Shown: piece by piece, positions 3,420 through 49,058 of the stretch
Position numbering within the stretch: position 1 is the first letter of the stretch
Layout: each line of letters opens with the position of its first letter
Assembly (NCBI GenBank): GCA_030390025.1
Contig: CM059432.1
Location: 71,302,001 to 71,366,000, forward strand
DNA from: Squalus acanthias
Lineage: Eukaryota
Direction of reading: 5' to 3'
DNA: 64,000 nt
Translations under genes and position numbers: made by a program
The notes under the pieces: model-generated
Database searches by the model: none
What the model was told of the DNA's origin: nothing
The model's input: the letters and a program-made list of their open reading frames with translations, nothing else

Positions 3420-3561
3420 CTTTTTTTTATATTCGTTCCTGGGATGTGGGCTTCGCTGACAAGGCCAGCATTTATTGCCCATTTCTAATTGCCCTTGAGA
3501 ATGTGGTGGTGAGCCGCCTTCTTGAACCGCTGCAGTCCACATGGTGAAGGTACTCCCATAG
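3420..3561 (-). mobile_element. 3' end of a CR1/L2-group LINE
   Basis: Same 3' sequence as at about 52400-52545 and 57010-57150. Confidence 0.75.
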
Positions 3562-4371
3562 TGGGGATAGGCTACCGACAAACATCCACTACAAGCCCAC
3601 TGATTCCCACAGCTACCTGGACTACACTTCCTCCCACCCCGCTTCCTGTAAGGACTCTATTCCATTCTCCAAATTTCTCCGTCTCCGCCGCATCTGTTCT
3701 GACGATGCCACCTTCCATACCAGTGCTTCCGATATGTCTTCCTTTTACCTCAACAGAGGATTCCCCCCTACCGTGGTTGACATGGCCCTCGACTGTGTCC
3801 ATTCCACTTCCCGCACTTCTGCTCTCACCCCTTCTCCCTCCCAGAACCACGATAGGGTTCCCCTTGTCCTCAGCTTTCACCCCAACAGCCTCCACATTCA
3901 ATGGATCATCCTCCGCCATATCCTCCACCTCCAGCGTGATCCCACCACCAAACTCATCTTCCCCTCCCCTCCCCTTTCAGCATTCCGAAGGGACCGCTCC
4001 CATCCTCAACACCCTGGTCCACTCTTCAATCACCTGGAACAGCCCCTCCCCTCCCCACGGCACCTTCACGTGCAAGCGCAGGAGATGCAACACCTGCCCT
4101 TTTACCTCCTCCCTTCCCACTGTCCAGGGCCCCAAACACCCCTTCCAGGTGAAACAGCGATTTACTTGTACTTCTTGCAATTTAGTATACTGTATTCGCT
4201 GCTCACGATGCGGTCTCCTCTACATTGGGGAGACCAAACGCAGATTGGGCGGCCGCTTTGCGGAACACCTCCGTTCAGTCTGGAAGGGTGACCCCGAGCT
4301 TCCGGTCGCTTGTCACTTTAATTCTCCGCTCCACTCCCACTCTGACCTCTCGGTCCTCGGCCTCTTACACT
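3562..4371 (+). mobile_element. Penelope-like element, 5' part (RT C-terminus and GIY-YIG endonuclease, frameshifted), interrupted by the provirus
   Basis: NLVYCIRCSRCGLLYIGETKRRL..RFAEH GIY-YIG motif; the sequence continues after 17102. Confidence 0.88.
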
Positions 4372-6018
4372 TGTAAGGGATTCTGACCCTGCGTGTCTCG
4401 CAGCCTGTGAGATTTCACGCGGCTCTGTGCAGCCTGTATGTCAGTGCGGGTCTAGGCCTTGTTGCCTGTTCTGGTCTCCAGCCAGTCTGGGAACACTAGA
4501 CACACCTGTGAGTGGTTCGAATCACTCGCCCTTACGGTTCTAGACACTGGACTTAGATGCGAGAGCAGTAATGGAGATGAAACTCATGTAGACTCGGTTG
4601 AATGGTACGAAATGGAAAATCTTTATTGCATGATACTTAAGATTATGAAATACATGTCATAAGCACAGATTAATGACAGTACAATCTTACAAGCAGTTAT
4701 ATAGTCGATCTTAGGGAAACGAGGAACGAACGGCACACCGTAAATAGGGGCACACATTACAAATATCCTTAATCCTTAAACCCTCCCCTATCAATATCTA
4801 TCCTAACTAGATTCGTAGGATTTCGAGACTCATGCTCACCACTCGTGATAACTCGGAGAAATTCCGAATAGCTGATCGGATGTTTTTCACCGCAGCACCC
4901 ACGTGTCGGTCAGGAGATCTCCTGGTCCCACTTGTTTACTTGCTTCTGCTGCTCCGGCTAGCAGGCTGGACCGTCTGTTGTGATGAAGACCTGTGTTGGT
5001 TGGTTTAACAGGTACTTTTCCGAGCACAGTTCAGTCAATATCATCGATGTGATATGTTCTTTGCAAGTTCGAAGAAGTCTTCCTGGCAAGGAAAACTTGG
5101 CTGTTCGACCTACAGGCGCGGTCGGGATTTACTGACCGTGGCGATGAATATGGTCTTCCTCTCTTCTCATCTCATCTCATCTCGGGCCTTTGGTTCCGCT
5201 GCCAGTTACCAACATAGGTCTTCGTTACGCGACACGAGGTAGATCCGAACGGATCAGAAAGTTCAACAGTCCTTTTCAAAAAGTCAACAGGCAAGCAGGA
5301 GCCCGACTACGAGTACACAGGAGCAGCCACGAGGTTACGAATAAGAGCACAGGATAAGAGCACAGGAGCAGCCACGATGATAAGAGAAAGATGGACGGTT
5401 TGGAGCCTGCAATTATAGTGCAAAATCTTCCGTTTCCCGCCCAACTTTAATGTCCATTCTTTTGTTTAAGGTCTGGCGCTCAAATGTCTTGTATGGGTGA
5501 TCTCCGTTCTTAATGGGTTTCGGGGCTACTCGTAAATGTCTGAGTACCTGTTAATATTTCTCCCATTGTTAAATCGGTCGGTGTTCTCCCTGGAGGGGTT
5601 GTGGGGCTTCCAAGTGTTTTGTATAACTACCTGCTAACGGCTCTCTCATCGTAGAGTCGTTGGGATTTTACATATTAATGTCTTTTGGATGGGCCCTTGA
5701 TTACTCGGTACAATAGCTTTCATTTGTACCTGGGAGACCGATTTCAGTATTTATGTGTATACTGCAAACCCATAATGTCTCGTGTATTATCTTCACTGTG
5801 CTGAATCTTAATCGATCTTGCACAAATGTTTATTGGAACGCCATCTTGTCTGCCTGTCGAAAAGTCTAGAATGTTCTGTCACGAGGTGCGGCGGCCATTT
5901 TACAGGCTGCTTGTGTCCACTTTAAACCTGGCAGCATTCTGCTGAAATAAAAGCTGTTTGAACGAAACTCTGTGTTTTCTCCTTATTAATAAAATCGCGA
6001 TATATTGCGAATTCTACA
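4372..6018 (-). repeat. 3' LTR (1647 bp)
   Basis: Begins TGTAAGGG and ends ATTCTACA on +; preceded on the minus strand by a purine-rich tract. Confidence 0.97.
4622..4627 (-). terminator. Candidate polyadenylation signal in the 3' LTR
   Basis: Minus-strand AATAAA about 250 nt before the LTR end, in AT-rich context. Confidence 0.55.
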
Positions 6019-6469: not shown

Positions 6470-8821
6470 TCACACGGTGCTTTCATCGTGCACACGCACG
6501 TAACGTTCTCGCCACTCTCCCGTGTTTTCATGCTTGGTGAGGCGCTTGTCTCTTTTACAATGTACGACCAATAGGTACACTACAATGAAAACTTGGCATA
6601 CGACTAAAATGTGGGAGGCTATTCTGATCCATGAAGGCACTTCAATATTAGTGAACAGATTCCACCACGGTGGAACTACTATATCCAAAATGTCTGTTCC
6701 TATTTCGACAGTTTTCTGCTCTAATGTGTAAAAATGTTTCTGTGACACCGCAACGGCTTTTAAAAGTTTGGTGAGGTGTTCAGGGAGAGGGGGAATGAGG
6801 TATCCAAAATGCGCGACGAATCGCTGCAAGTCGGTGAAATTCTCTTTTACTGTGAGATGAACAGTGGATGGTTCAGGGATTGGGATAATTCGCTGTTGTG
6901 CTACTTGAACTTCCGCCCTGGGTTTAAAACAGAAACTGCTGTCACTCACCGGACACCGGCTACGGTTTCCATGCTGGTAGTGTTGCGCTGCAGTGGTAAC
7001 ACAATATGTTCCACCCCCGATGTATGCTACCTGCGGAGGCACATGATCTTGTGCCATTGCCTCCATGGTGCAATTCATGGACTTGGCGCCAGTCGTTCTG
7101 AACCCACACTGTGGTGTTAAAAAGGCATTCAAGTGCTGGGGGCACAGTATTATGTGTGCTCCCCTGCCACGACAACCAGAGAGATCTGTACCTGTCATCG
7201 TTTGCTCCCAGCGGATGACGTAAGGTGGAACCGCTGCGTAACGAATGTGGGCTCCCCCCTGAATGACACCAATGTTCTCTACCCGATACACCGGGGCGGG
7301 CTTTGCTGTGTCGCCCAAAACTGGCATGCGTAATACTATTCCCATAATAGTATGGTTTGATCGTCCGCAGTCCACGGGGACTGGGTAAGCTTCTGAAGCT
7401 AGCCTGAGCTGGCACGGACTTAATGCGTTCTGAAAAGGGTGGAGCGCCCGCAGGTGTTTGTTACTTATCCAGGACGGGACCAAACCTTGTTTTAAATCCT
7501 CCAAATTACTGCGGCCCTCGCCCAGTAACCACGCCCCGTAAAGCACGCACACCTCGTTCTGCGCGGCTTGATCGGATGCATTCCGATCTTCCCTAATCAG
7601 GGCATTTACCGTCTTTGCATGTTTCTCCAACTCTGCTATAATTTCCTTTAAATGGAGAGTCATGGCTTGGTCCTCGTGTAAACCTGACCCTACCACTTTA
7701 TTCTCATCTGTTAGAATGTCTTTTAATTGTGTCTTTAAACCATTAATCTGGGTCTGCAGCTCCACACTGTCTAGAGCGTTGACCACAGATGTACCCGTGT
7801 TAAAAGCAGTGAACGCATCGTTCACCAAACCCCTTCTTTGCCTCCCTGCTTGATTCAAAACTTCCTGTGGTGCGGTGTACAAACTTGTTTTATCAATTTC
7901 CGCGAAATCGAATTCGTAAAATTGTCTGAACATCTTGGTCAACAGGACCTGATACAACTGTTCCGTCTTTTTGGGGCACCACTCTGGTAACCGCACCTCG
8001 GTGAGATTTAAAATCACCGAGGCCACCGCGTAATGTACTCCCTGAAATAGTATCTGGTCTGTGGGGACCAGTACCAAACCATTCCCGGGTCCCTTACTAG
8101 TTTTAGGGCACCCTTCTTCCTCAGCTAGAACCACCGGAATCGTGGGCGGGGCTTTGCGTGGGCGCGTAATGAGCTCAGTGGCATTTACTGGGATCGGGGA
8201 GAATGGGGCTCCGCACCCCCTGGTGCTCGCATCCCACCTCATCCCCTGTCCGTTATCCTGCCATTGATTAATGAAAAATATGGAGATGCCTTTGGGGCAA
8301 ACGTACTTTGACCCCCACATACATACATATATTCCCTCGTCCGGTTCCCACCATTTGTCCCAACAGACTTTCACTTGTCCGTTTGTCCCCGTAATTGTCC
8401 GATGGGTATTATTACCCAGTCGTTCCCACTCGACCGAAGAGTTCCTCATAGTTTTGCTCAGCTTTCGCAGCCACCACCATCGGCTCAGTGGGACATTCCC
8501 ACTACAAGTCAAACAAATCCGTTTGCCGACGGTGACGCTGATCCTGGGTGCGATGATCCTTACTTTGGGGCACAGTAAAGAAGTCTCTTTGTAGGCAAAC
8601 CCCGATGTGCTAGAATACTCCGTTGAGTTCGTTCCCAGCCATCCTGGCCACCTTCCCTTGTGGAAATAGGTGCTGGTCTCCTCTGCCTCCCGTCTTCCGG
8701 TCCCATCCACCGCGATGGGGGCCGTGTCCCCGGAACATCCAAACACCACGACATCCTTGGTGCGGCCTCGATAGGCCAATCCACATCCGATTGCCGCGAG
8801 CAATACTAGAATTCGTTCCAT
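6470..8821 (-). CDS. env: Env-like class I fusion glycoprotein (783 aa from the Met at 8821; ORF open from 8980)
   Basis: Signal peptide MERILVLLAAIGCGLA; Ig-like segment; furin site RQRR (7832-7843) followed by a fusion-peptide-like segment and heptad repeat; Cys-rich ectodomain; several N-x-S/T sequons; C-terminal TM and short tail. Confidence 0.9.
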   Translation of the reverse strand: MERILVLLAAIGCGLAYRGRTKDVVVFGCSGDTAPIAVDGTGRREAEETSTYFHKGRWPGWLGTNSTEYSSTSGFAYKETSLLCPKVRIIAPRISVTVGKRICLTCSGNVPLSRWWWLRKLSKTMRNSSVEWERLGNNTHRTITGTNGQVKVCWDKWWEPDEGIYVCMWGSKYVCPKGISIFFINQWQDNGQGMRWDASTRGCGAPFSPIPVNATELITRPRKAPPTIPVVLAEEEGCPKTSKGPGNGLVLVPTDQILFQGVHYAVASVILNLTEVRLPEWCPKKTEQLYQVLLTKMFRQFYEFDFAEIDKTSLYTAPQEVLNQAGRQRRGLVNDAFTAFNTGTSVVNALDSVELQTQINGLKTQLKDILTDENKVVGSGLHEDQAMTLHLKEIIAELEKHAKTVNALIREDRNASDQAAQNEVCVLYGAWLLGEGRSNLEDLKQGLVPSWISNKHLRALHPFQNALSPCQLRLASEAYPVPVDCGRSNHTIMGIVLRMPVLGDTAKPAPVYRVENIGVIQGGAHIRYAAVPPYVIRWEQTMTGTDLSGCRGRGAHIILCPQHLNAFLTPQCGFRTTGAKSMNCTMEAMAQDHVPPQVAYIGGGTYCVTTAAQHYQHGNRSRCPVSDSSFCFKPRAEVQVAQQRIIPIPEPSTVHLTVKENFTDLQRFVAHFGYLIPPLPEHLTKLLKAVAVSQKHFYTLEQKTVEIGTDILDIVVPPWWNLFTNIEVPSWIRIASHILVVCQVFIVVYLLVVHCKRDKRLTKHENTGEWRERYVRVHDESTV

Positions 8822-8834
8822 CCTTCCTTGGTTC

Positions 8835-8856
8835 CTGTGATCAGATAGAATGAGGT
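8835..8856 (-). promoter_or_regulatory. Candidate env splice acceptor
   Basis: CTCATTCTATCTGATCACAG|G, 13 nt upstream of the signal-peptide ATG (AGGATGG). Confidence 0.5.
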
Positions 8857-9111
8857 AGCCAGCCTCGCAAGAGTCTCTGGCTTCTGTGAAGGGTAAGCGG
8901 GTCCCCTGACCTCGCCTCACGTAAACTTCAACGTTCGCTGAATAAACTTTAACTAAACCTAACTTTAAAGCTCCCATCATTTTATCGTTTTCTGTTAAAA
9001 TTAAAACTGCAAACTTAACCTTATTAAAACTATAAACTTAACCTTGAACTATGAACTTAAAACTTAAAACTTATTACTATACAGTGCCGCCCGTTCTCAG
9101 GGCGGCCCCCT

Positions 9112-12100
9112 TTAAATTCTGAGAAGGCTGCTGCGAGCTCTTCCCGACGGTGGGAGGGCACTGACCCTTCCCTCTGATCTGCCGCAGCCTGTTGCTGCAC
9201 TGACCCTTCCCTCTGATCTGCCGCAGCCTGTTGCTGCCGCGATGTGGCCGGCCTGTATCTGGGTTATCTTAACCTTAACTCTACGCCTTGGGGCAGTCTG
9301 GGGACATGACCACATCCTCCTGGGCTGGGGTTCTCTACTTGACCTACGGGGAGTTGCTATGGGCGGGGGTTCCGTGACGGACGGACCGGGTTCCGAGACT
9401 TCCATCGGGATGACCTGGGGTTCCACCACAGTCGCTGGCTCCGCCTCCGCTGACTCCGCCTCCCTAACCTCGGGGCTTGCAGTTTGTGGCTCCGCCCTGC
9501 TCGGCCCAGCAGGCGGCCCTTCACTCGTGATCTCTGCCTCCCCCGAGGACGGGACGTTCAAAGCGGGCGGCCACATCTCTGGGAGCCACACCGGTACTCT
9601 CTGTGCTCCCATAGCGGCTGGCCCTGCCTCCCCTAGCTCCTCCCTCCTGTCTTCGGGACCTGTAGCTTGTGTGTCCACCCTGTGTGGATCTCTATCTGCA
9701 GCCCCCATTCCCTCCAGACCGTTCCTCAGAAACCACCCGTCGTCATCATTATCCTCATCTGCACTATCCTCATCTGACCCGAGTACCCTGAATTCTTCCT
9801 CATCTAACCCCCAATTCCAGAAAAACGCTGCATGATCGTCCGGGATGTCCCTTCCCCTGATGCAAGCTGCTATGCCTGCCTGTGTGCCTTGTGGTCCTAC
9901 CTGGGGCTGTGCTTTCCCACTGGCGGGATTTACCCCTGTAGTTTTCCCTTGCGCACCTGGCTGGTACAGTTTGCATTGGTTTATGTGGAACCACTTAGTG
10001 CGCCGAGGTACTTTTACGGCGTAAACCATGGGACTCGCCTTGTCTACAATGTTGTAGGGTCCCATATACAGTGGTTCCAGACTCCCTACTCTGGCGTAGT
10101 TTCTGACCATGACCTGGTCTCCTACTTCCCACTCCCGCGTTTTGCGGGGTTCCAGCAACAAGCGATTGCCCTGATGCTGCCTTCCCATGTTCCCAGCCGC
10201 CTGCTCATAAACCTGCTTCAGGCGCTCCAAGAGAGTCTGGGCGAACTTGTCCCTGCTTATCTCTTGGAGCTGACCCTCAGTGAGCACCGGCGCTAGCACA
10301 TGGGTGGGGGTTCGCATGAGCCTCCCAGTCATTACCTCGTGCGGGGAGTACCCCGTACTTTTTGACTGACTGGCCCGGACCCCCATGAGGACTAAAGGCA
10401 GAACTTCCGCCCATTTTTGGGGCGAGTTCCTAGTCTCTTTCCTCAATTTCTCCTTCAGGGTCCGGTTCATACGTTCAACAATCCCGGATGACTGGGGATT
10501 GTGTGCTACGTGCCACTTCCCTTCAATGCCCAAAAGCATGAGGGTGTTCTGCATCACCTGGCCGGTGAAATGACTCCCTTGGTCTGACTCCACAAAACGG
10601 GGAAGTCCCCACCGCGAGAACCCTTCCCGGACCAAGATTTTTGCTGTACCCAGTGCCGTAGCTGTTCGACAGGGGAAGGCTTCCACCCACTTGGAAAACA
10701 CATCCACCAAGACGAGGCAATACTTATAACCTCCCTGGGTGGTGGGCAGGGGTCCTATATAGTCGATCTGTATCGACTGCCATGGTCCCTCTACCCTTCT
10801 TACGTGTCCCATGGGCACCTTCCTTTTCTGGGGGTCTGGGTTGTTTGCAGCGCACACAAGACAGTTTGCACAGAACTCGCGGACTTGTTCCCTGAGCCCT
10901 GGCCACCATCCCGCTTGCTCTACCCGTTGCCAGGTAACCTCGGGCCCGGGGTGCCCTGCCCCTGGTCCCTCGTGAGCCAACTGGAGGAATTCCCTCCTGT
11001 GCTGCTGCGGCACAACCCACTGCTCCTCGCGGAACAGCATGCCTTCCTTAACTGAGAGGGTTGCCGTACTGTACGGACCTTCTACCTGTCTCCCCTCAGC
11101 AATGGTTTTTAGGACTGCTTTTAGGGCGGGATCCTGGGCTTGGACGGTCTTAAGGTCTAGGGGCAATGCTACCCTGGTGTTCCCGGGATTCCCGTCCCTG
11201 CCTCGAACCGCTGCTATGGGTCTGGTCCCATAGGGGTTCCAGAAAATGCCGTTGCGGGCACCTTCCCTGGCTAGCGCATCCGCCTGCTGGTTGCCCTCCC
11301 CACGGGGCTCTGTGGAGGAGTGAGCTTTCACCTTATGGATGAAAATCTCTCCTTCCTCCCCTACTGCTGCTGCTAAGATCTTTTCCAGCAAAGGCTTCAC
11401 CGTTAAAGGTCGCCCGTCCGCGGAGGTGTATCCACGGCGGGACCAAATGGCCAGGTATTCCGTGCACGAATTGCAGGTGAACATACTGTCCGAGCAAATC
11501 GTGTATGGGGTTGGGAAAATGTCTGGGTGGGTCACAACGTACACCACGGCAGACAGCTCAGCCTGCTGCGCGCTCATGGTGCTAGGGAGCTTGATCGCCA
11601 GGGCAAGGTCTGCCGCAGGGTCATAAACTCCACACCCTGTGAGTCGCTCGCCAGCAGATACTGTGCTAGACCCATCAACATAAATCTCGCGCCCAGTGGG
11701 ATGTATCCCGGCCCGTAAACCTATGTTGACGTCCCACACCCCTTCCACCGAACACCGGTGGGCTGTACCGGGGTATACCAAATTGGCCGCAAGCCTGGGC
11801 TCGCAAAGACCTTTTACTCTAAGATCCAACTGGGAGAGAAGAAGGGTCCAACGCGCAATGCGCGCGCTGCTTACGGTCCCGTCTTTAATCCTCCCATCCA
11901 GAAGCATCTTAGTTGGTGTGTGATGTGTGAGGAGAGTGATGGGAGAGAGCCCTGTGAAGATCGCTGATCTTTTCACAGCCCAATGCGTGGCTAAAAGGTG
12001 CCTTTCGCAATTGGAGAAACTTCTCTCCACATCCGTTAACACCCTGGATGAATAGACAACCGGCCTCAGCTTGCCGTGACGCTCTTGGAGCAGTACGGCG

Positions 12101-13635
12101 CTTAAGCTGTCTCCGCTGGCAGCTACCTCCAGGAAAAACTCCTTCCCCCCATCTATGGCCCCTAAGGCTGGCGCGGTCTGCAGATCCCTTTTTAACTTCT
12201 CGAAGGCTGCTTGGCAGCCCTCGTCCCAAGACCACTCCACCCCCTTATGGAGGAGTCGGAGGAGCGGCGCTGCTGTGGCCGCATAATCTTCGATAAAATC
12301 CCTGCAGTAACCGGTCAGTCCCAAGAAGGACCTCACACCCCTTACGTTGTTGGGAATCGGTAATTCTTGCACCGACTCCCTCCTTGCCTTGTCTATGGCT
12401 CTTTCCCCAGCGCGTATGGTCAGTCCCAGGAATTTTACTTCCCGCTGACCGATACGTGCTTTCTTAGGGTTTATTTTAAAACCCTTTCTCGCTAACAGCT
12501 CCAATAACTCGTCCAGCAGTGGTCCATGCTCCTCCCTTGAGTCCGTAAATAGGAGCAAATCATCCACATACTGCACTATCTGATTGGGCTGACTAAACTC
12601 CTTTAAACTTCCTGCCATACACTGATGAAAAATACTGGGGCTATTGTGGAAACCCTGTGGCAGACAGTTCCATGTGTACTGTTGTCCTTTAAAAGTAAAG
12701 GCAAACTTGTACTGGTCCTCTCGCCGCAGCGGGATGGACCAAAAACCGTTCGAGATATCCAGCACCGTGAACGTGGTCGCGGACGCTGGGATGCTCCCTA
12801 TTAGGTCAGCAACTGCTGCTACCGTGGGCGCGCAGGCGGGAATGTTACTGTTAAGGACTCTGTAGTCCACCGTGGCTCTCCACGAATTATCCGGCTTCCT
12901 AACCGGCCATAATGGGGAGTTCACGTGTGTGGCTATCGGCCTCAACACGCCCTGCTGCACCAAGGAAGACATTGCTGTCTCCATATCGGGTTCTGCTTCT
13001 TTGGGGAAGTTATACTGCTTTTGGGGTCGGGTCATGGGGTCCCCATCTACGCTGACCTCAAACCCGACCACTCTCCCACAATCGTGCTTGTGGGTTGCAA
13101 ACGCGTGCATATTATCTGACACGTACGTTTGCATGTCCGTTGGGACATCTGCGACCATAAGCCTGAGGTCGTAGCCTCCGGATGGCTGTACGGTACACAG
13201 GACCCCTGTTTCTTCCTCCCCCGGAATCACTATTACCTCGCCTTTTTCACCTTTAGCCCCCCAGAGACAGTGATTTCTGAGGTCCACGAGGATCCCGTGT
13301 CCCGATAGGAGATCAGACCCGAGAATACCTCTTCCACCCCCCTCCTGCCATGCCATCAGTATACACTTCCACTTAAGGCGAAGTGTTCCTAAACGAATGG
13401 ATAGCGGAAGGGAAAACGTGCCAGCCTGTTCTTTTCCTGTGAACCCCGCTAACGTGAATGGGACCTTGGTAGATAGCGGCGAGTCAAAAGGGTTATCTGT
13501 ATGGATTATGGTGCAAGAAGCTCCCGTGTCCAACAAATAACTACCCCTCTGTTTCTCTACCTCCATCTCCACCAAAGGTCGCTTCCACGCATCATAGCTA
13601 AGCGGACACAGGTAGACGGGCTGCGCCGGTTCTAG
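9112..13635 (-). CDS. pol: Pol (protease-RT-degenerate RNase H tether-RNase H-integrase-C-terminal extension), in frame with gag and probably made as Gag-Pol by stop readthrough
   Basis: PR LLDTGAS; RT LDISNGFW, LPQGFHNSP, YVDD; RNase H YVDGS/QAEL/SDS/NQQADALA; IN HHCC, D-D-E (IDYIGP, SDQGSHF, VERMNRTLK) and GPY. The frame is open from the codon after the gag TGA. Confidence 0.95.
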   Translation of the reverse strand, partial: LEPAQPVYLCPLSYDAWKRPLVEMEVEKQRGSYLLDTGASCTIIHTDNPFDSPLSTKVPFTLAGFTGKEQAGTFSLPLSIRLGTLRLKWKCILMAWQEGGGRGILGSDLLSGHGILVDLRNHCLWGAKGEKGEVIVIPGEEETGVLCTVQPSGGYDLRLMVADVPTDMQTYVSDNMHAFATHKHDCGRVVGFEVSVDGDPMTRPQKQYNFPKEAEPDMETAMSSLVQQGVLRPIATHVNSPLWPVRKPDNSWRATVDYRVLNSNIPACAPTVAAVADLIGSIPASATTFTVLDISNGFWSIPLRREDQYKFAFTFKGQQYTWNCLPQGFHNSPSIFHQCMAGSLKEFSQPNQIVQYVDDLLLFTDSREEHGPLLDELLELLARKGFKINPKKARIGQREVKFLGLTIRAGERAIDKARRESVQELPIPNNVRGVRSFLGLTGYCRDFIEDYAATAAPLLRLLHKGVEWSWDEGCQAAFEKLKRDLQTAPALGAIDGGKEFFLEVAASGDSLSAVLLQERHGKLRPVVYSSRVLTDVERSFSNCERHLLATHWAVKRSAIFTGLSPITLLTHHTPTKMLLDGRIKDGTVSSARIARWTLLLSQLDLRVKGLCEPRLAANLVYPGTAHRCSVEGVWDVNIGLRAGIHPTGREIYVDGSSTVSAGERLTGCGVYDPAADLALAIKLPSTMSAQQAELSAVVYVVTHPDIFPTPYTICSDSMFTCNSCTEYLAIWSRRGYTSADGRPLTVKPLLEKILAAAVGEEGEIFIHKVKAHSSTEPRGEGNQQADALAREGARNGIFWNPYGTRPIAAVRGRDGNPGNTRVALPLDLKTVQAQDPALKAVLKTIAEGRQVEGPYSTATLSVKEGMLFREEQWVVPQQHRREFLQLAHEGPGAGHPGPEVTWQRVEQAGWWPGLREQVREFCANCLVCAANNPDPQKRKVPMGHVRRVEGPWQSIQIDYIGPLPTTQGGYKYCLVLVDVFSKWVEAFPCRTATALGTAKILVREGFSRWGLPRFVESDQGSHFTGQVMQNTLMLLGIEGKWHVAHNPQSSGIVERMNRTLKEKLRKETRNSPQKWAEVLPLVLMGVRASQSKSTGYSPHEVMTGRLMRTPTHVLAPVLTEGQLQEISRDKFAQTLLERLKQVYEQAAGNMGRQHQGNRLLLEPRKTREWEVGDQVMVRNYARVGSLEPLYMGPYNIVDKASPMVYAVKVPRRTKWFHINQCKLYQPGAQGKTTGVNPASGKAQPQVGPQGTQAGIAACIRGRDIPDDHAAFFWNWGLDEEEFRVLGSDEDSADEDNDDDGWFLRNGLEGMGAADRDPHRVDTQATGPEDRREELGEAGPAAMGAQRVPVWLPEMWPPALNVPSSGEAEITSEGPPAGPSRAEPQTASPEVREAESAEAEPATVVEPQVIPMEVSEPGPSVTEPPPIATPRRSSREPQPRRMWSCPQTAPRRRVKVKITQIQAGHIAAATGCGRSEGRVSAATGCGRSEGRVSALPPSGRARSSLLRI
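9158..9237. repeat. 39-bp tandem duplication at the end of pol
   Basis: GCACTGACCCTTCCCTCTGATCTGCCGCAGCCTGTTGCT x2, frame-preserving (13 aa). Confidence 0.9.
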
Positions 13636-15447
13636 TCATGGGGTACTATTAGACGGTCCTGCGGCACCTACGGGGCCGGTTGCGACCGCCACCTGTCCAC
13701 GTGCACTCAAGATTAGATTGCGCATGGCTCCTAACACTACTTCGAGGTCATCGGGAGGGGTGGGTGCCTTAGCTTCCTTAGCCGGGACAGGCGCCTGGGC
13801 TCGGACCGCGGGATTTTTATCCTTGGAATCCTTCCAAGGGTTCCTGCAATGCTTGCGCCAGTGCCCTGTCTTCCCACACCCGTAACAAGCATTACCTGCC
13901 TGTGGGGCGCGATTACCCTCCTGATGCCACTCTCTTTGATACGGGGCTGCGGGTCGTACCTCATGTACTCTTCCCTTAAGGGGACGTGTTGCCATACCCC
14001 TTATATTGCGATATCCTAACGTGAGTCGATTCAAGACCGACTCTTCCGTAATGTTGGGGTCATTGGGATCAAACCATGCTTTTGCCTGCTCTCTGACGGC
14101 TGGTAAACTGTTGGCTATTATGCACCTAAGCCAATGAGTTAAAGCGGTGCCTTCCACATCTTCGCGCTCGGGCGCACCTAGGCAGCTGCGCTCATATACT
14201 GGCCACAGCCTGTCGGCAAAAACCTTCGGGGGTTCTCCCTCCATCTGCACTGTCTGTCCCACTCTAGCAAACGGACCTTCATCATTCGCCCCCAACACTT
14301 CCAGGACCTCATCCCTCAATTCCTCATAAGTCTTGGTTCCCCTCTTGCTCTCGCCTGAGAGACACTGAAGGACCGAGCTGTCTAATGAGAACAGCAGCAT
14401 TTTTGCTGTCTCCCCATCATCGCAGCCGTTAATGGCTGCGGCTTGCTCAACTTCTCTGAAATGTACGGAAGGGTCGTCTGACTCGGTCAGCTTCCGTACG
14501 TGATTTATCATAGCTCTCAGCTGATGTGAGCTGTGAGGCAACACCAGCTGTCCGAGGAGATCCCCCGGTTCTTCCCCACCGTTTCTGTTTGGGCCCCTTT
14601 TAATACCCGTTACTGGATACAACGGTCCCTTTCCTACTTCTTTTTCAATGGGCTCTTTTGTTTCTTCCATTGCTTCCTCCCTTACCCAGGTTTCCGAATA
14701 GCTGGGTGGCGCGGAGGGCGCAGTGGCTACTACTTCTTCTGCTTTACTTGGTGGGGATTTCTTAAACTTCTCACCTACTAACGGCTGGTGTGCTGACGGA
14801 CTGATCAGGCACACCATGCCGTTCGCTTTGTTTACGGCCTTCTTGAGGTGCTCTATCTCCCTTTGGCAGGCGCTATGGTCGGCTCCCTCAAACTTATCCT
14901 CAAGGGCCAACTTATATGCCGCCCTAACCCCCGTTAAGCTCTCTTCTTGAGTTCTTATCTGGGCAGCTTGGCGGTTACATCTTTCCTTTAACCTGCTCTC
15001 ATTTAACTTTGCTTCAGTGACCTGGCACTCGAGATAATCTATCCTGGTTTTAAGGTGACTGGAGATTTCCTGGCTTTCTTGGTGCAACTCATTTAAATTC
15101 TTAATGAGCACCTCCCCTCCAGAAACCTTCTCATCCATTTCTCCCTCTAAGTGACTGATTCGAGCTACTAGCGCTGTAATGGTCTGGTTTGAAATCTGAA
15201 CCTGCCTTTTGTAACACATAAGCCAGACTGCTTTCTCAAGTGTCTTTCTATGTTCTTTACTATCTGTCCACCTTTCGGCTGCCTCTAGCGGGCTTTTATC
15301 CGCTAACAATTCACTTATCCACTTCTTAGTTAGATTAACCTTTCCAAACACATAATCTGCTATCTTTTCCTGCATAACATTTCGTACAGTCATTCCAAAG
15401 TCTAACACACTACCCTCTCGCTGCCAGTGTCCTGCCGCGGTCGCCAT
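13636..15447 (-). CDS. gag: Gag polyprotein (603 aa from the first true ATG)
   Basis: ATG in AAAATGG context at 15447; N-terminal coiled-coil-like region; PSAPPSY late domain (14698-14718); CCHC knuckle CYGCGKTGHWRKHC (13846-13887); ends at TGA. Confidence 0.92.
   Translation of the reverse strand: MATAAGHWQREGSVLDFGMTVRNVMQEKIADYVFGKVNLTKKWISELLADKSPLEAAERWTDSKEHRKTLEKAVWLMCYKRQVQISNQTITALVARISHLEGEMDEKVSGGEVLIKNLNELHQESQEISSHLKTRIDYLECQVTEAKLNESRLKERCNRQAAQIRTQEESLTGVRAAYKLALEDKFEGADHSACQREIEHLKKAVNKANGMVCLISPSAHQPLVGEKFKKSPPSKAEEVVATAPSAPPSYSETWVREEAMEETKEPIEKEVGKGPLYPVTGIKRGPNRNGGEEPGDLLGQLVLPHSSHQLRAMINHVRKLTESDDPSVHFREVEQAAAINGCDDGETAKMLLFSLDSSVLQCLSGESKRGTKTYEELRDEVLEVLGANDEGPFARVGQTVQMEGEPPKVFADRLWPVYERSCLGAPEREDVEGTALTHWLRCIIANSLPAVREQAKAWFDPNDPNITEESVLNRLTLGYRNIRGMATRPLKGRVHEVRPAAPYQREWHQEGNRAPQAGNACYGCGKTGHWRKHCRNPWKDSKDKNPAVRAQAPVPAKEAKAPTPPDDLEVVLGAMRNLILSARGQVAVATGPVGAAGPSNSTP
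15429..15446 (-). promoter_or_regulatory. Primer-binding site, tRNA-Ser-like
   Basis: TGGCGACCGCGGCAGGAC starts 5 nt after the 5' LTR. It begins TGG and partly matches the complement of vertebrate tRNA-Ser 3' ends as I recall them (TGGCG....CGGCAGGA). The tRNA identity is uncertain. Confidence 0.65.
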
Positions 15448-15451
15448 TTTC

Positions 15452-17098
15452 TGTAAGGGATTCTGACCCTGCGTGTCTCGCAGCCTGTGAGATTTCACGC
15501 GGCTCTGTGCAGCCTGTATGTCAGTGCGGGTCTAGGCCTTGTTGCCTGTTCTGGTCTCCAGCCAGTCTGGGAACACTAGACACACCTGTGAGTGGTTCGA
15601 ATCACTCGCCCTTACGGTTCTAGACACTGGACTTAGATGCGAGAGCAGTAATGGAGATGAAACTCATGTAGACTCGGTTGAATGGTACGAAATGGAAAAT
15701 CTTTATTGCATGATACTTAAGATTATGAAATACATGTCATAAGCACAGATTAATGACAGTACAATCTTACAAGCAGTTATATAGTCGATCTTAGGGAAAC
15801 GAGGAACGAACGGCACACCGTAAATAGGGGCACACATTACAAATATCCTTAATCCTTAAACCCTCCCCTATCAATATCTATCCTAACTAGATTCGTAGGA
15901 TTTCGAGACTCATGCTCACCACTCGTGATAACTCGGAGAAATTCCGAATAGCTGATCGGATGTTTTTCACCGCAGCACCCACGTGTCGGTCAGGAGATCT
16001 CCTGGTCCCACTTGTTTACTTGCTTCTGCTGCTCCGGCTAGCAGGCTGGACCGTCTGTTGTGATGAAGACCTGTGTTGGTTGGTTTAACAGGTACTTTTC
16101 CGAGCACAGTTCAGTCAATATCATCGATGTGATATGTTCTTTGCAAGTTCGAAGAAGTCTTCCTGGCAAGGAAAACTTGGCTGTTCGACCTACAGGCGCG
16201 GTCGGGATTTACTGACCGTGGCGATGAATATGGTCTTCCTCTCTTCTCATCTCATCTCATCTCGGGCCTTTGGTTCCGCTGCCAGTTACCAACATAGGTC
16301 TTCGTTACGCGACACGAGGTAGATCCGAACGGATCAGAAAGTTCAACAGTCCTTTTCAAAAAGTCAACAGGCAAGCAGGAGCCCGACTACGAGTACACAG
16401 GAGCAGCCACGAGGTTACGAATAAGAGCACAGGATAAGAGCACAGGAGCAGCCACGATGATAAGAGAAAGATGGACGGTTTGGAGCCTGCAATTATAGTG
16501 CAAAATCTTCCGTTTCCCGCCCAACTTTAATGTCCATTCTTTTGTTTAAGGTCTGGCGCTCAAATGTCTTGTATGGGTGATCTCCGTTCTTAATGGGTTT
16601 CGGGGCTACTCGTAAATGTCTGAGTACCTGTTAATATTTCTCCCATTGTTAAATCGGTCGGTGTTCTCCCTGGAGGGGTTGTGGGGCTTCCAAGTGTTTT
16701 GTATAACTACCTGCTAACGGCTCTCTCATCGTAGAGTCGTTGGGATTTTACATATTAATGTCTTTTGGATGGGCCCTTGATTACTCGGTACAATAGCTTT
16801 CATTTGTACCTGGGAGACCGATTTCAGTATTTATGTGTATACTGCAAACCCATAATGTCTCGTGTATTATCTTCACTGTGCTGAATCTTAATCGATCTTG
16901 CACAAATGTTTATTGGAACGCCATCTTGTCTGCCTGTCGAAAAGTCTAGAATGTTCTGTCACGAGGTGCGGCGGCCATTTTACAGGCTGCTTGTGTCCAC
17001 TTTAAACCTGGCAGCATTCTGCTGAAATAAAAGCTGTTTGAACGAAACTCTGTGTTTTCTCCTTATTAATAAAATCGCGATATATTGCGAATTCTACA
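15452..17098 (-). repeat. 5' LTR (1647 bp)
   Basis: Direct repeat of 4372-6018 at offset 11080, with no difference found in a line-by-line visual comparison; adjacent to PBS and gag start. Confidence 0.97.
16488..16525 (-). promoter_or_regulatory. Candidate LTR core promoter (GC/E2F-like box, ETS-like CGGAAG, TATAAT); duplicate at 5408-5445
   Basis: Minus strand reads GGGCGGGAAACGGAAGATTTTGCACTATAATT; two YY1-like motifs lie upstream in U3. An alternative TATATAA lies near 15778-15784. Confidence 0.45.
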
Positions 17099-17102
17099 CA
17101 CT

Positions 17103-17520
17103 GTTCCAATGAAGCTCAATGTAAGCTTGCGGAACAGCACCTCATCTTTCGATTAGGCACTTTACAGCCTTCTGGACTCAACATTGAGTTCAACAATTTC
17201 AGACTATAACCCCTGCCCCTATAATATCACATGGGAGCTGTTGATGATTCTGCCATCCCCATTTGCAACATTTAATCTTTCCTGCCTTGCACCTTAGCAC
17301 AGACCGTCCCTTTTGTTCTTTCCTCCCCTCCCCCCTTTCCCTGCCTCTGCACCTGCTTAAAACCTGTTACATCTCTAACTTTTTCCAGTGCTGACGAAGG
17401 GTCACAGACCTGAAACATTAACACAGTTTCTCTCTCCATGGATGCTGCCTGGCCTGCTGAGTGTTTCCAGCATTTTCTGTTGTTATTTCAGATTTCCAGC
17501 ATCCGCAGTATTTTGCTATT
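17103..17520 (+). mobile_element. Penelope-like element, 3' part with pLTR region
   Basis: Continues the same peptide (EQHLIFRLGTLQPSGLNIEFNNFR), matching the uninterrupted copy at 30894-31601. Confidence 0.85.
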
Positions 17521-20768: not shown

Positions 20769-21082
20769 TATGGATAATCCACTCTTTAACATCAAACTCA
20801 TAAGTGGATATATCTAAGATTTCCTGTGCAGCTGTTATGATAGCTAACTGCTGGTGGAATAATTCCCACATTCCCCACGGTCAACTGTTACAAATTTGTC
20901 AATGCCAATGAAAGTCTCCGCAAGCAGGAGCACTTGTAGAATTTTCAAATCAGTATGGAAGTAATCCCTACGGGTTGCTTATTTCCTTCCATTAACAGAG
21001 TGACTCCCGCCAACGATCGGAAGCTGCGCAGAAGCGTACTGTGCATTAATCTGGAACCAGAGGCTTCTTTTTTTTCCACAGT

Positions 21083-21291
21083 GCATTTTTCCTCACAGCC
21101 TGCTCTCTCCCAGCATTTTTCCTCACAGCTCGCTCTCTCCCGGCATTTTTCCTCACAGCCCGCTCTCTCCTGGCATTTTTCCTCACAGCCCGCTCTCTCC
21201 CGGCATTTTTCCTCACAGCCCGCTCTCTCCCGGCATTTTTCCTCACAGCCCGCTCTCTCCCGGCATTTTTCCTCACAGCCCGCTCTCTCCC
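21083..21291. repeat. Minisatellite, 7 x 30 bp
   Basis: Unit GCATTTTTCCTCACAGCCCGCTCTCTCCCG with few substitutions. Confidence 0.95.
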
Positions 21292-21970
21292 TGTGAACAG
21301 TGAGCCTGCTGGAAGATTCAGTTAAAAATAAGCAATTGCTATGGCATGACACCAAACCTTCAGCAGGCTTTTTATCTTGCTCAACAGTTTTCAAGGCCAC
21401 TTTCATCACATAAAATGTATTCCTCAGTGCATTTTGCTGGTAGTATCTGGCTTTACACATTTATGTACTGACATGCTATCTTTCCTCAAAATGAACTGTG
21501 ACATCTTTTGAGATGGACAATTATTTGATTTTATTAAAAGATTTCAACATGATGGATGAGAAGGATTTATAAGTAATCAGAACCTTGATATTCTATTACC
21601 ACTTTCATTTCACAAGTTTGTACCTAATTCCATGTGTTTTGGAGATAATACATCATCACATATATGGAATTCTATGAAATTCTTGGCAACTCAAAGGTAT
21701 ACTGGAATATCGGGCATACAGTAAAACTTAAGTTATAATTTTGTGCAGAATTATCAATTCAATTTTTAAATGTAATCTTTCTTCATTATTCTAATAGTTA
21801 TTTACCTCCCCATTTTTAGTTTCCTTTGTACCAGTCTAAGAATGGGCAGGTAGCTAGGAATCCACCAATACTGCTTTGGCCAGCAAGTAAGTAAATCGGC
21901 CCTATTTGGAGCCAGTAAACCATGTCAAACTTGCATTCTGTCTTTCCCTCGAATGCTTGGGAAACCCTTT

Positions 21971-27396: not shown

Positions 27397-29309
27397 ATGA
27401 CTGCTGCAAGATCTAAGGCTGCTCCTCGATTTGATGATGACTCCCACCATGTTCTTGTGGAGGGAGTAAGAGGGCGCAGGGAGGTTCTGTTCCCTCTCGA
27501 TGGCCGGAGGAGGCCTCCTCAGCAAACCAAGGCAGCCTGGCTGCAAATTGCTGAGGAGGTAAGCACAAGGTCTTTGTGCTCACGCACCTGGGTGCAGAGC
27601 CGAAAAAGGTTCAATGATCTGCTACGCTCAGCAAAAGTAAGTATCACATCACACTTACCTTCAATCTGCTTCCCTTCTCTTCTCATCACCAGCACTCTGC
27701 ATTGTCAACCTACTCCTCCACATCCCAACTTACCCTTACTTCCCTTGCACCCTTACCTCTCTATCTCTCTCTCTGTACTGAATCACTTCACCATCCTACT
27801 ATGAACCCCTCACACTCGCTTTCACTGTTATGCAATGACAACAACTAACAACGCACAGGGAGGCACCTTGGTTTTGGCACTTCACTCCATCTTTGTCTCC
27901 CTCTAAGCTTCTATGTTATGGATTCTTTACACTCACTCCATCAATCTCGCTGAAGCTCCACTTGTGTCCCTCATTGCAGGAAAAGAGAGCCCACAATAAG
28001 AGGGAGAGAGGGAGGACAGGAGGAGGCCCCACCATCCCTGACGACTTTAACAAACACTGAGGAGGCTGTTCTCGGCATCGTGGGAGCTGCAGAGGAGCTG
28101 GAAGTGGGGGACGGAGAGACGGACGTAGTCGAACAAGCTGGTGACAGAGTAGATTTGCAACCCTCTCATTTTGATTTCATGAGTGACTGATATGGCATCT
28201 GAGGTTCATACAGATTGAGTTCTGATCATCTGCACAAGTCGATGTGCATGCTACGTTAATATCACATGTCTAACTCATGCCTTTACTCCCCCACAGGACC
28301 ATCGAGAGCCCCCTCCCCACTGTCCATGAGGAAAAGCTGGACGACTCCTCAGAGGAAGCTGCAGCCTCTGAGGGAGCAGCGTCAGCAGAATTCAGCGCAC
28401 CCAGCACCAGTGCAGAGACGCACACCTCGGTGGGTCCTTCGCGACATAGAGTAGTGTTGTCACCTGGTGTTTCACAGCTCACAAGTGAACATCAGCAGAT
28501 GGTGGAGACAGCGACAGCGCTGGAGAGTCCTTGACGGAGGTCACAGGACGTTCCTAGCTCTGCTCAGCTGCATGTAGACATTGTGCCTCTGGGGCCATCC
28601 AGAAAGAGAGCGGTGCTGGAACTTCAGGAAGAAGTGCAAGAGGCTCTGACAAGGTTTGCATCCACAGTAACTGCGAGTGCGCAGGGAATGGAGGAGTCCA
28701 TGTCAAATATGAGCAATGCGGTGGTGCACGCAATGGCGAATGTAGGTGCCGCCATGGAAAGGATGGCAACCTCCATGGAGGACATAAATCGCCAGACTCA
28801 AATGAACATGGTGACTCTTCTAAATAGATGTTCTGCGATGGAGGTTAGATGGGCATCTATTGAGGAGAGGAACCAGAGGTACATGGATGTCCCCATTATG
28901 AGGACTGTCAGTACAGAGACGGGTCCTCATGGCCCCACTGATGTGCAGCAAGGTGCTCTCCAGCCACTTGTTAGCAGTGAAGTGCGGGTGACCCATGAGA
29001 GGGATGTTGGTGGTCGACAACCAGGAAGTGTGGGCTCCTCTCCAAGCGCTCACACTCCCATGCCACAGCGGAGCCCTCGGTCACAGCCCTCGATTCCTCA
29101 CCCAACTGAGATGGCCATCTCAGCCCCTGCACAGCCGCAGGAGGAGTAGACTATTGCAGAGCCCTCCAGCTCCCAAACCCAGAGGACACCCGCCAAAGGC
29201 ATCTAAGCAGGTGCAGCATAGAAGTGAGCAAGGTGCCTCTACATCTGCAGAAGCCACAGGGGAAGCACTACGTAGAAGCACGCGTAAGAGAAATTTAAGA
29301 CACAAATAA
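27397..29309 (+). pseudogene. Harbinger Myb/SANT DNA-binding protein gene; exons about 27397-27636, 27980-28140, 28297-29309
   Basis: APRF..., W..IA..V, RTW.Q.RKRFNDL motif; GT-AG introns; premature stops near 28532 and 29147. Confidence 0.8.
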
Positions 29310-30490: not shown

Positions 30491-31648
30491 AAATAAAAAC
30501 AGAAAATGCTGGAGATACTCAGCAGGTCAGGCAGCATCTGTGAAGAGAGAAACAGAGTTAACGTTTCAGGTCGATGACCTTTTGTCAGAACTGGAAAAAA
30601 GCAGGAAATGGAACAGATTTTTAAGCAAGTGACAGGGCTGGGAAAGGGGGAGGGGATGAAAGAACAAAAGGGAAGGTCTGTGATAGGATAGAAGGCAGGA
30701 GAGGTTAAGAGACATTAAGAGATATTCAAGGCAAAAGGAGATGGTAATGAGACAGGTTAAGAAACAAAGGATGGCTCTAGATGAAGTGTAAATTGCCCTG
30801 GCAGAATGAAAGACAGCTGCCAAGTGGGAGAGAAGAACAGAAGGCACAAACAAAAAGTGTGGATAAAAAAAATATATATGATAGGGACCGAGGTTATGAT
30901 CTGAAATTGTTGAACTCTATGTTGAGTCCAGAAGGCTGTAAAGTGCCTAATCGAAAGATGAGATGCTGCTGCTCGAGCTTACGCTGAGCTTCAGTGGAAT
31001 AATGCAAGAGGCCGAGGACGGTGAGGTCTGAGTGGGAGTGGAGCGGAGAATTAAAGTGACAGGCGACCAGAAGCTCGGGGTCCCCCTTACGGACTGAATG
31101 GAGGTGTTCCGCAAAGCGGTCACCCAATCTGCGTTTGGTCTCCCCAATGTAGAGGAGACCACATCGTGAGCAGCAAATACAGTATACTAAATTGCAAGAA
31201 GTACAAGTAAATCGCTGTTTCACCTGGAAGGGGTGTTTGGGGCCCTGGACAGTGGGAAGGGGGGAGGTATAAGGGCATGTGTTGCATCTCCTGCGCTTGC
31301 ACGGGAAGGTGCCGGGTGAAGGGGAAGGGGTGCTGGGGGTGATAGAGGAGTGGACCAGGGTGTCGCGGAGGGAGCGGTCCCTTTGGAATGCTGAAAGGGG
31401 AGGTGAAGGGAAGATGTGTTTGGTGGTGGGATCACGCTGGAGGTGGCAGAAATAGCGGAGGATGATCCGTTGAATGTGGTGGCTAGTGGGGTGAAAGGTG
31501 AGGACAAGGGGAACTCTATCGTGGTTCCGGGAGGGAGGGGCCGGGGTGAGGACAGAAGTGCGGGAGATAGAACGGACACAGTCAAGGGCCGTGTGAACCA
31601 CAGTAGAGGGGAATCCTCAGTTGAGGAAAAAGGAAGACATGTCAAAGG
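30491..31648 (-). mobile_element. Penelope-like element fragment (GIY-YIG endonuclease plus pLTR)
   Basis: ORF 30894-31601 has a GIY-YIG motif and closely matches 3562-4371; it sits at the break in a Harbinger transposase. Confidence 0.88.
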
Positions 31649-35161: not shown

Positions 35162-37483
35162 GGAGCTCGATTTTTATAGAGGAGGCCGGTTGGAGTCGGG
35201 TTGCGTGGTGGGCGGGTTCCGGAGCCGCTTCCGGCGGGATCAGCTGCTGATGTCCGATTTTGATTTAATGAGCTTGTTGATTTCAATGGGATGTGCTGGC
35301 CGGTCCAATGAGTGCGATCGGGTCGGCTGGCCACCTCTGATGACCTCATCATAGCTGCTGCTTTTAAAGCTTCCATTCAGCCTAAGCCTTTCTCTTCTGG
35401 ATTCTGATACTCAGTGAGATTGATCGATACGCAATGACTTCTTCCAGAGGCAAGGCAGCTCCTCGATTTAATGATGAGTCCCTCCATGCTCTTGTCGATT
35501 CTGTCAGAGGACGCAAGGAGATTCTCTACCCTCCTGATGGCCGGAGGAAGCCTCCTCAGCAGACCAAGGCAGCCTGGCCGCGCATTGCTGAGGAGGTCAG
35601 CGCAAGGTCCATATGTTCATGCTCATGGATCCAGTGCTGAAAAAGGTTTAATGATCTTGTGTGAACATCAAAAGTGTGTATCACATCACACTTACCTTCA
35701 ATCTGCTTCCCTTCTCTTCTCATCACAAGCACTCTGCATTGTAAGCCTCCTCCTTCACATCCCACCTTACCCTTACTTCCCTTGCACTCTTACCTATCCA
35801 TCTCTGTCTCTGCACTGAATCACTTCAGCATCCTGCCTATGCACCCCTTAGACTCGCTCTCACTGTCATGCAGTGACAACAACTAACAACGTACAGGGAG
35901 CTAGCTTCCTCTTGGCACCTTACCCCATCTTCGTCTCCCTCAAAGCTTCTATGGTCGGGATTAATCACACTCACTCCATCACTGTGGTTGAAACACCACT
36001 TGTGTCCCTCCTTGCAGGAAAAGATAGCCCACAATAAGAGGGAGAGAGCACCGACTGGAGGAGGAACACCTACCCTAGCAACATTGACAAGTGCTGAGGA
36101 GGCTGCATACGATATTGTTGGAGGTGGCGAGGACCTGGAAGTGGGCGATGGAGAGACAGGCACACTAGAGGAAGTTGGTGACATAATAGAGTTTCATCCC
36201 TCACAGACTGCAATGGCATATGATGTTCATAGAGAATCGCATTGTATCATCTGCTCAAAAGGATGTGTCTGCTACATCAATATCAGATGTCTAAATCATG
36301 CCTTAACTCTCCCACAGGACCATCAAGCGACCCCCTCCCAGAATCCAGGACGAAGAGCCGGACAACTCCTCAGAGGAACCTGAAGCCTCTGAGGGAACAG
36401 CGTCACCAGGACTCAGCGCACCCAGCACCAGTGCAGCAACGCACACCTCGGTGGGGCTCTCGTAAGTTAGAGTAGTGTTGCCACCTGGTCTATCACAGCG
36501 CACAAGTGAGCATCAGCAGATGGTGGAGACAGCGACAGCAGTGGAGAGTCCTCGGCGGAGGTCGCAGGACTCTCCTAGCTCTGTTGAGCTGCATGCAGAC
36601 GCTGTGCCTCTGGGGCCATCCAGAAAAAGAGCGTCTCGGGAAATACAGGAACAAGTGCAGGAGTCTCTGGAAGGGTATGCCTCCAGGGTTAGTGCGAGTG
36701 TGGAGAGAATGGAGGAGTCCATCTCTAACATCAGCACTGCCGTGGTGGAGGCAATGGCGCATGAACGCACCACCATGGATAGGATGGCTACCTCCATGGA
36801 TAGGATGGCAACCTCCGTGGAAAGGTTGGCTACCTCCATTGAAAGGATGGCTACTGCCATGGAGGAAATAAGTCGCCAGAGTCAGGAAAACATGGTGACT
36901 GTTCAAAATAGAATGTCATCTCTGGAGGAGAGATGGGCAGCTATTAAGCAGAGAGATCAGAGCTTCATGGACGTCCTTGTGATGAGGACTGCCAGTGCAG
37001 ATATGGGTCCTCATGGTTCCCCTGATGAGCAGCAAGGTGCTCTCCAGCTTGAATAGTCACAAGGTCAGTAGATGTGCAAAATCTTATCCCATACCTACAA
37101 CAGCAAAGTTGTTGCATTTGAATGTCAGCCATGTTTCAGGGTCGTTTTTAAAGTGCTCCACCAATGAATACAAATCATGTCCTCCAGCAACACGTCTCCT
37201 TGAACCTGGCCTGTTTCTGACTAGTCGGGAAACAGGAGCCAGAAGCACGAAAATGGGAAACCACTATCAAAATAGGATTAGCAAGGCAGTAAACAGGCTG
37301 TTAACTGCCTTAACTACCTGTCCCACCGGTTCCAGGCGGGTCAGTTTGGGAGCGGCTAAACAGACACTCACAAAATTCGGGTGGGGGCGGGATGGAGGCA
37401 GATTGGGTATCTGAAGCCATTTTTTCCGATTTTCGCTATAGACCCGCCTCCAAACCCTCCTCAGGGCTATTAGAATCGAGCCC
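35162..37483 (+). mobile_element. PIF/Harbinger element B, internally deleted (Myb/SANT pseudogene 35434-37056, no transposase)
   Basis: Close paralogue of 27397-29309 with the same intron positions; termini GGAGCTCGATTTT / AGAATCGAGCCC. Confidence 0.78.
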
Positions 37484-48945: not shown

Positions 48946-49058
48946 TATGTTTATACGCACAGCTTCCATCAGCAGTCCACCACTGGAAAGCAAGCAGGAA
49001 TGTTAAAAGCCCAGGCTGAGTTTTGCCCTCTTAAATACAGGAATCCTGTGGTTAATTG

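Follow-up and report, generated by a model that had tools for sequence, protein, structure and literature searches.

The provirus and its surroundings

The window, the whole 64-kb stretch of DNA analysed here, contains a complete provirus of 12,727 bp on the minus strand, arranged LTR-gag-pro-pol-env-LTR, with TG..CA ends and a target-site duplication (Table 1). The provirus is very young, and its two LTRs are identical at all 1647 positions. The LTRs are long; read on the sense strand, they have a TATATA at position 1316 and two AATAAA, at 185 and 1392. The leader is nearly absent, since gag's first ATG (15447) comes four bases past the 5' LTR and overlaps the candidate primer-binding site, which presumably matches tRNA-Arg. 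ARAGORN found no tRNA within the window.

Table 1. Features of the provirus, in window coordinates
Feature	Position	Strand	Description
pol ORF	9112..13635	-	1507 aa: protease, RT, tether, RNase H, integrase, then tail; gag frame
RT core (RVT_1, YVDD)	12415..12903	-	Pfam E 5e-36
Tether/connection (degenerate Gypsy-type RNase H)	11800..12147	-	pol residues 497-612, next to the RT thumb
Second RNase H, RNase H1 type	11257..11688	-	pol residues 650-793
Integrase	10495-11013	-	within pol ORF
gag	13636..15447	-	603 aa from first Met, one CCHC knuckle; whole ORF 13636-15531
env	6470..8821	-	783 aa from signal-peptide Met; whole ORF 6470-9037
5' LTR	15452..17098	-	1647 bp, TG..CA
3' LTR	4372..6018	-	same as 5' LTR at 1647/1647 bases
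Target-site duplication, left copy	4368..4371	.	4 bp
Target-site duplication, right copy	17099..17102	.	4 bp
Candidate primer-binding site	15429..15446	-	begins TGG; overlaps first gag ATG

The gag and pol genes share a frame and are separated by the gag stop TGA followed by CTAG (13632-13638, minus strand), a readthrough context of the alphavirus and cellular type. Pol would likely be made by readthrough of this stop, because TGA-CTAG lies in the pol frame and the context, UGA-CUAG, is listed as readthrough-prone in PMC13517186, where the retroviral contexts include UAGGGA, UAGGGC, UGAAGA, UGACGA, and UGAAGU. Past the integrase, pol continues for ~280 residues (9112-9950, minus strand), which include an acidic stretch as well as a tail rich in proline and glutamate; a 39-bp tandem duplication (9158-9237) lies at the end of the gene.

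At least half of the sampled words are present in 20 of the 24 sequencing runs listed (8 studies, five coded organisms), and four runs span all 30 bins with many variant contigs. This coverage fits a multi-copy family, and one run may be the source of the window itself. Reads joining across the provirus site were considered as an empty allele and set aside, as intact copies of the flanking repeat may have given rise to them. That repeat (3513-4371 and 17099-17490), which we take to be probably Penelope-like, is split by the provirus and bears a GIY-YIG ORF (PF01541, E 4e-4); an intact paralogue lies at 30876-31640 in the window. The window also holds two copies of a ~1.6-kb repeat (27397-28964 and 35434-37048) that are 72-84% identical and contain coding-like internal repeats of 21 bp, a G-rich minisatellite at 49031-49800 whose GC skew is 0.78, and, at 21053-21322, a 30-bp tandem array.

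The envelope

The env product has a furin site at residue 327, a C-terminal membrane anchor, a short cytoplasmic tail of about 30 aa (by hydropathy), and no CX6CC motif. It is F-like by weak matches: it resembles the paramyxovirus and baculovirus F proteins in the Atlas Fusion_gly/Baculo_F clusters (0.92), and a sub-piece matches PF00523 at E 0.035, under the cut-off. The subunit after the furin site is long and rich in cysteines, and the RT is nonetheless canonical-retroviral. The N-terminal subunit (8240-8590, minus strand) has a weak immunoglobulin-domain match (Ig_3, E 0.018), and comparison of env with PDB sequences gave two non-significant Ig-type matches, to JAM and an antibody V domain (E 0.7-0.9). 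A single-sequence structure model of env has a pLDDT of 32.7.

The only env homologues found were in gene models of skate and sawshark, so the host is probably a cartilaginous fish; a search of viral_contigs with env returned no relative. In sawshark, env pieces with 54-70% identity occur in P0084, P0085, and P0248 (Niban 1-like, ZFP2-like, and cadherin-related 5-like, respectively), and are probably bits of provirus that gene prediction has spliced in. Beyond env, the sense strand has no ORF of at least 50 aa. F-like envelopes are described for lokiretroviruses (PMC7947760) and foamy viruses (PMC11468914). The F-like env is more unusual than the two RNase H (RH) domains.

Two RNase H domains in pol

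The preliminary description had read the interval 11260-12150 (minus strand; pol residues 496-792) as an inactive Gypsy-type RH followed by an active retroviral-type one, and at the level of sequence both halves of that reading hold. In domain 1, all of the scaffold motifs quoted are present and the Gypsy RH profiles of Pfam match: RT_RNaseH on pol residues 497-602 (E 4.8e-18; 65.7 bits against a cut-off of 24.8) and RT_RNaseH_2 on residues 470-558 (E 2e-21). The reported replacements D>A, E>H, and D>H correspond to A505, H546, and H571 at the first three catalytic positions of Ty3 RT, as read from a pairwise alignment to Ty3 RT (4OL8) that is itself a weak match (E 0.016). In an alignment of 146 single-RH retrotransposons, the first of these columns is D in 137 rows, the second E in 132, and the third D in 129. 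The fourth catalytic acid of domain 1 is not alignable, the window's sequence having a gap at that column.

Domain 2 (Pfam RNase_H on pol residues 650-793, E 1.2e-19) retains all four acids, D654, E693, D716, and D786, together with H772 and the KVKAH motif. It has an RNase H1-type fold, with a mean pLDDT of 81.5 over the 393-residue fragment modelled, and superposes over 159 residues on XMRV RNase H, at Z 19.5 and rmsd 2.9, and over 146 residues on human RNase H1, at Z 18.7 and rmsd 2.5. The acids of domain 1 are not intact and domain 2 is an RNase H, as the preliminary description required.

The pair of domains resembles the corresponding part of known retroviral RTs. Foldseek matches the two-domain model to MLV chains ending at the connection (E 7e-14 to 1e-12), as well as to foamy virus, CaMV, and Ty3 (E 1.7e-9 for Ty3); the structural superposition (VIA) list for this model is taken up by matches to the second RNase H (RH2). 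MLV RT is colinear with the window's pol over both domains (E 4.1e-17), and the isolated domain 1 region, the tether, matches the MLV connection at E 4.2e-8 versus E 0.016 for Ty3 RH. The MLV connection covers the entire span of domain 1 and retains the first Asp. This dual layout is found in 52 of the 206 RT-bearing sequences examined. It is described as general for retroviruses (PMC4408406, PMC7947760, PMC9040795) and is reported in a class III frog ERV (PMC8278194), and the Gypsy likeness of such tethers, those of lokiretroviruses included, is published (PMC7947760, PMC9040795, PMC4408406). The two domains are very likely an ordinary retroviral RT tether followed by an acquired RNase H, in a young endogenous retrovirus (ERV) that is likely of the snakehead retrovirus (SnRV)-like group. 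On this reading, domain 1 is a predicted structural spacer without catalytic activity, and domain 2 would do all of the RNA cleavage.

Family placement

The provirus likely belongs to an SnRV-like group within the canonical retroviruses, judging from its protein sequences. The careful RT tree has 56 rows, comprising 40 canonical, 4 Loki-type, and 12 Gypsy sequences, and none of the trees has foamy, ERV-L, or class II rows. The window's RT falls inside the 40-row canonical group (100/99), apart from the Loki-type rows (100/99) and Gypsy. The SnRV-like rows form a grade rather than a clade in this tree (3 changes), and their monophyly is unrejected (p 0.349); in the RH2 tree, the SnRV-like grouping takes 2 changes. 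In the RT core, the provirus is 53% identical to SnRV-like relatives, 50% to the SnRV-type protein P0106, 36% to class I, and 35% to Loki-type sequences. Of the relatives that carry a name, 'NYNRIN-like' proteins of frog and coelacanth come closest (40-45% identity). Among 229 proteins, P0106 has both SnRV motifs tried, and is called SnRV-type from motifs only; the Loki RH motif occurs in four, and one protein, P0181, bears the name WEHV-1. SnRV-related ERVs are reported in all major vertebrate groups as clade Huo (PMC6001957) and in elephant shark as CmiERV lineage I (PMC4422223).

An earlier RT tree of 80 rows was made by a quick fallback method, without P0079, P0072, and P0082, which have a short RT match. 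P0017, P0096, P0155, and P0224, near-duplicate or degraded, were left out of a separate quick tree used to set group labels, of the profile scoring, and of the comparisons of tether, RT, and RH2. P0014 and P0148 were also left out of the tether, RT, and RH2 trees, and P0010 and P0228, with partial RT, out of the RT tree. A Ty3/Gypsy retrotransposon was rejected as a candidate identity, as a single active D-E-D-D RH would be expected and the provirus has a degenerate RH plus a second one.

How Gypsy-like is the tether

Erosion of the tether was measured as a bit score, using a profile built from 56 Gypsy RH domains that had been dereplicated and whose acids are intact. Held-out active Gypsy RH domains have a median of 118 bits (38-153), Loki-type tethers 70.7 bits (5 rows, 67-78), SnRV-like tethers 61.4 bits (15 rows, 37-78), and class I-type (gamma/epsilon-type) tethers 20 bits (28 rows, 10-42), with group labels that come from motifs plus the separate quick tree and are hence partly post hoc. 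The window's tether scores 61 bits and ranks 9th of the 15 in the SnRV-like group. Masking the three catalytic columns leaves the order unchanged (medians 111, 80, 69, and 26; window 71). Alongside the 61 versus 20 bits, the mean identity is 26% for the window's tether versus 18% for class I tethers. As a cross-check, PF17917 was scored on 26 proteins picked from a set of 82: the window's tether has 65.7 bits, ten SnRV-like proteins 56-80 (P0014 being omitted from the range, as its score sums two stretches), one Loki-type 73.5, three class I-type 37-42, and eleven single-RH proteins 88-126.

The tether had been described as little eroded. It is indeed far more Gypsy-like than gamma/epsilon tethers, but it sits at the median of its group and below the Loki-type tethers. 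Gypsy likeness is a trait of the whole SnRV-like group, and lokiretroviruses show at least as much. No study measuring how eroded the tethers of SnRV-like ERVs are turned up in a literature search that reached few subscription papers.

Origin of the tether and alternative readings

The loss of catalytic acids is common to all 48 tethers compared: none of the three acids is kept in 42, one is kept in 6, and more than one in none. Cys543 is present in 45 of 46 tethers versus 7 of 146 single RHs. Since this residue is nearly tether-wide and rare in single RHs, the alignments point to one shared origin of the inactive tether. The separate tether tree that had been proposed as a check groups the window's tether with tethers and not with Gypsy RH (46 versus 25 rows, 97/98), and unites the 15 SnRV-like tethers (97/89). 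Identity to relatives within the group is 47% for the tether, 40% for the thumb, and 33% for the active RH. Because it is better conserved than the active RH at the level of protein identity, the tether looks like a stable structural domain held by selection rather than a decaying one.

These comparisons bear on the preliminary description's view that the provirus is a little-eroded intermediate, taken here as a recent or arrested one whose Gypsy RH had only just lost its activity following the gain of a second RH. The window's tether does score about three times as high as class I tethers on the Gypsy-RH profile, and an AU test on the tether tree (115 columns) leaves a position among Gypsy RH unrejected (p 0.435). 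However, that score is typical of the SnRV-like group and under that of the Loki-type, both the inactive state and Cys543 recur in tethers of frog, coelacanth, Loki-type, and class I sequences, at most one acid survives in any tether, and the window's RT is nested within retroviruses. The intermediate is therefore unsupported and already largely refuted, and we consider it highly improbable. It is about as improbable that the dead pocket has taken on a second job in the SnRV-like group, such as metal or nucleic acid binding through C543, H546, and H571/H572. The near invariance of Cys543, the high conservation of the tether, and the His at the Glu position (546) in 10 of 15 SnRV-like tethers versus 0 of 33 others would suit such a role, whereas His571 occurs in only 2 of the 15 and position 546 is mostly Ala in class I and Loki-type tethers.

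A different doubt concerns the family alone: the provirus could be a lokiretrovirus, or a Loki-related lineage in cartilaginous fish, in which case the two-RH mechanism would be unchanged. A lokiretrovirus was the first guess from env and was dropped on the RT and RH motifs and the trees. An env that is F-like by weak matches would suit Loki, the dual RH with a Gypsy-like tether is as in Loki, the tether is 36% identical to Loki-type tethers versus 25% to that of P0106, and in the unrooted RH2 tree the SnRV-like and Loki-type rows fall together on one side (95/92). Forcing the window with the Loki-type RTs lowers the log-likelihood by 25.4 and is not rejected by the AU test (p 0.104). Against this, the two groups are separate in the RT tree, the RT motif is LPQG as in SnRV and not the CPFG of the four Loki rows seen in published alignments, and RH2 ends in KVKAH as in SnRV and not in the WKK.KGHS of 5 Loki rows. 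In a hand count over 113 RT positions, 65 match SnRV and 48 match Loki-Lch. Membership of the Loki lineage thus seems very unlikely, and an ordinary tether and RNase H in an SnRV-like ERV is preferred.

Proposed mechanism and significance

In an SnRV-like ERV of this kind, the tether would orient the RNA/DNA hybrid together with the second RNase H, as retroviral biology suggests. The second RNase H would then remove the template and primers and generate the plus-strand primer. Roles of the tether and RNase H in template degradation, primer removal, and plus-strand priming are described for HIV-1 (PMC4408406). The activity of the tether was probably lost a single time, in the ancestor that retroviruses share with lokiretroviruses, with the tether retained since, and the Gypsy-like look would reflect SnRV-like and Loki tethers having drifted less than the gamma/epsilon ones.

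A broader, rather doubtful proposal is that the SnRV-like family keeps a near-ancestral package within the canonical retroviruses, namely a Gypsy-alignable tether, an RH2 on the Loki branch, and an F-type env. It joins three signs of weak-to-moderate force, the Gypsy-like tether, an RH2 that falls with Loki in an unrooted tree, and the F-like env. If the proposal were true, the F-type env and the window's type of RH would be ancestral, the gamma-type env and heavily eroded tether would be derived, and SnRV-like tethers would be a usable marker for rooting retroviruses among the Ty3/Gypsy lineages.

The combination of tether and RNase H is itself of little import, since retroviruses and their sister lineages are defined by it and it is already published. 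The added value is modest and lies in the measured erosion gradient, from active Gypsy RH (118 bits) through Loki-type (71) and SnRV-like (61) to class I tethers (20). Canonical retroviral tethers are held in PMC9040795 to be too divergent for phylogenetic use; the SnRV-like ones are not, and could help both to date and to root the one loss of activity. Clean sequence for tether comparisons also comes from a young family such as this, whose reading frames are open.

Comparison with known systems

The closest likeness is to SnRV and SnRV-like ERVs, which share with the provirus the RT and RH2 motifs and the in-frame gag-pol readthrough layout, and the tether of the SnRV-type P0106 falls in one group with that of the window (97/89). 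The provirus is similar to SnRV in size (about 12.7 kb versus 11.2 kb) but differs in LTR length (1647 bp versus 518 bp; PMC12193657), gag stop context (UGA-CUAG versus UAG-GGC; PMC13517186), env cytoplasmic tail (about 30 aa versus 136 aa), and the lack of a further sense-strand ORF past env. Its tether is also more Gypsy-like than that of P0106 (61 versus 37 bits), to which it is 25% identical.

The RTs of MLV/XMRV and foamy virus (PDB 5DMQ, 4MH8, 4HKQ, 7O0G) have the same domain order and folds as the provirus and align colinearly with it over both domains. Against the Gypsy-RH profile, however, class I tethers reach a median of 20 bits, far under that of the window's tether, and the first Asp is kept in the MLV connection and replaced in the window's tether. 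Lokiretroviruses and Odin retrotransposons resemble the provirus in having a dual RH with a tether near Ty3 RH, and Loki probably also in its F-like env, but they differ in the RT and RH2 motifs and form a separate RT group. Tether identity to Ty3 RH is given as 32% for lokiretroviruses (PMC7947760) and 27% for Odin (PMC9040795), and is ~25% for the window by a hand count whose boundaries differ from those of the published comparisons.

Ty3/Gypsy RNase H (PDB 4OL8; PF17917/PF17919) shares the scaffold motifs of domain 1, whereas the provirus has three acids replaced and the fourth unalignable, a second RH, and an env. In plant Tat LTR retrotransposons (gRNH-aRNH), a degenerate Gypsy RH is likewise followed by an added RH (PMC4408406). 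That arrangement is of independent origin, and its added RH is of the archaeal type with Arg, in contrast to His772 of the window (PMC4408406).
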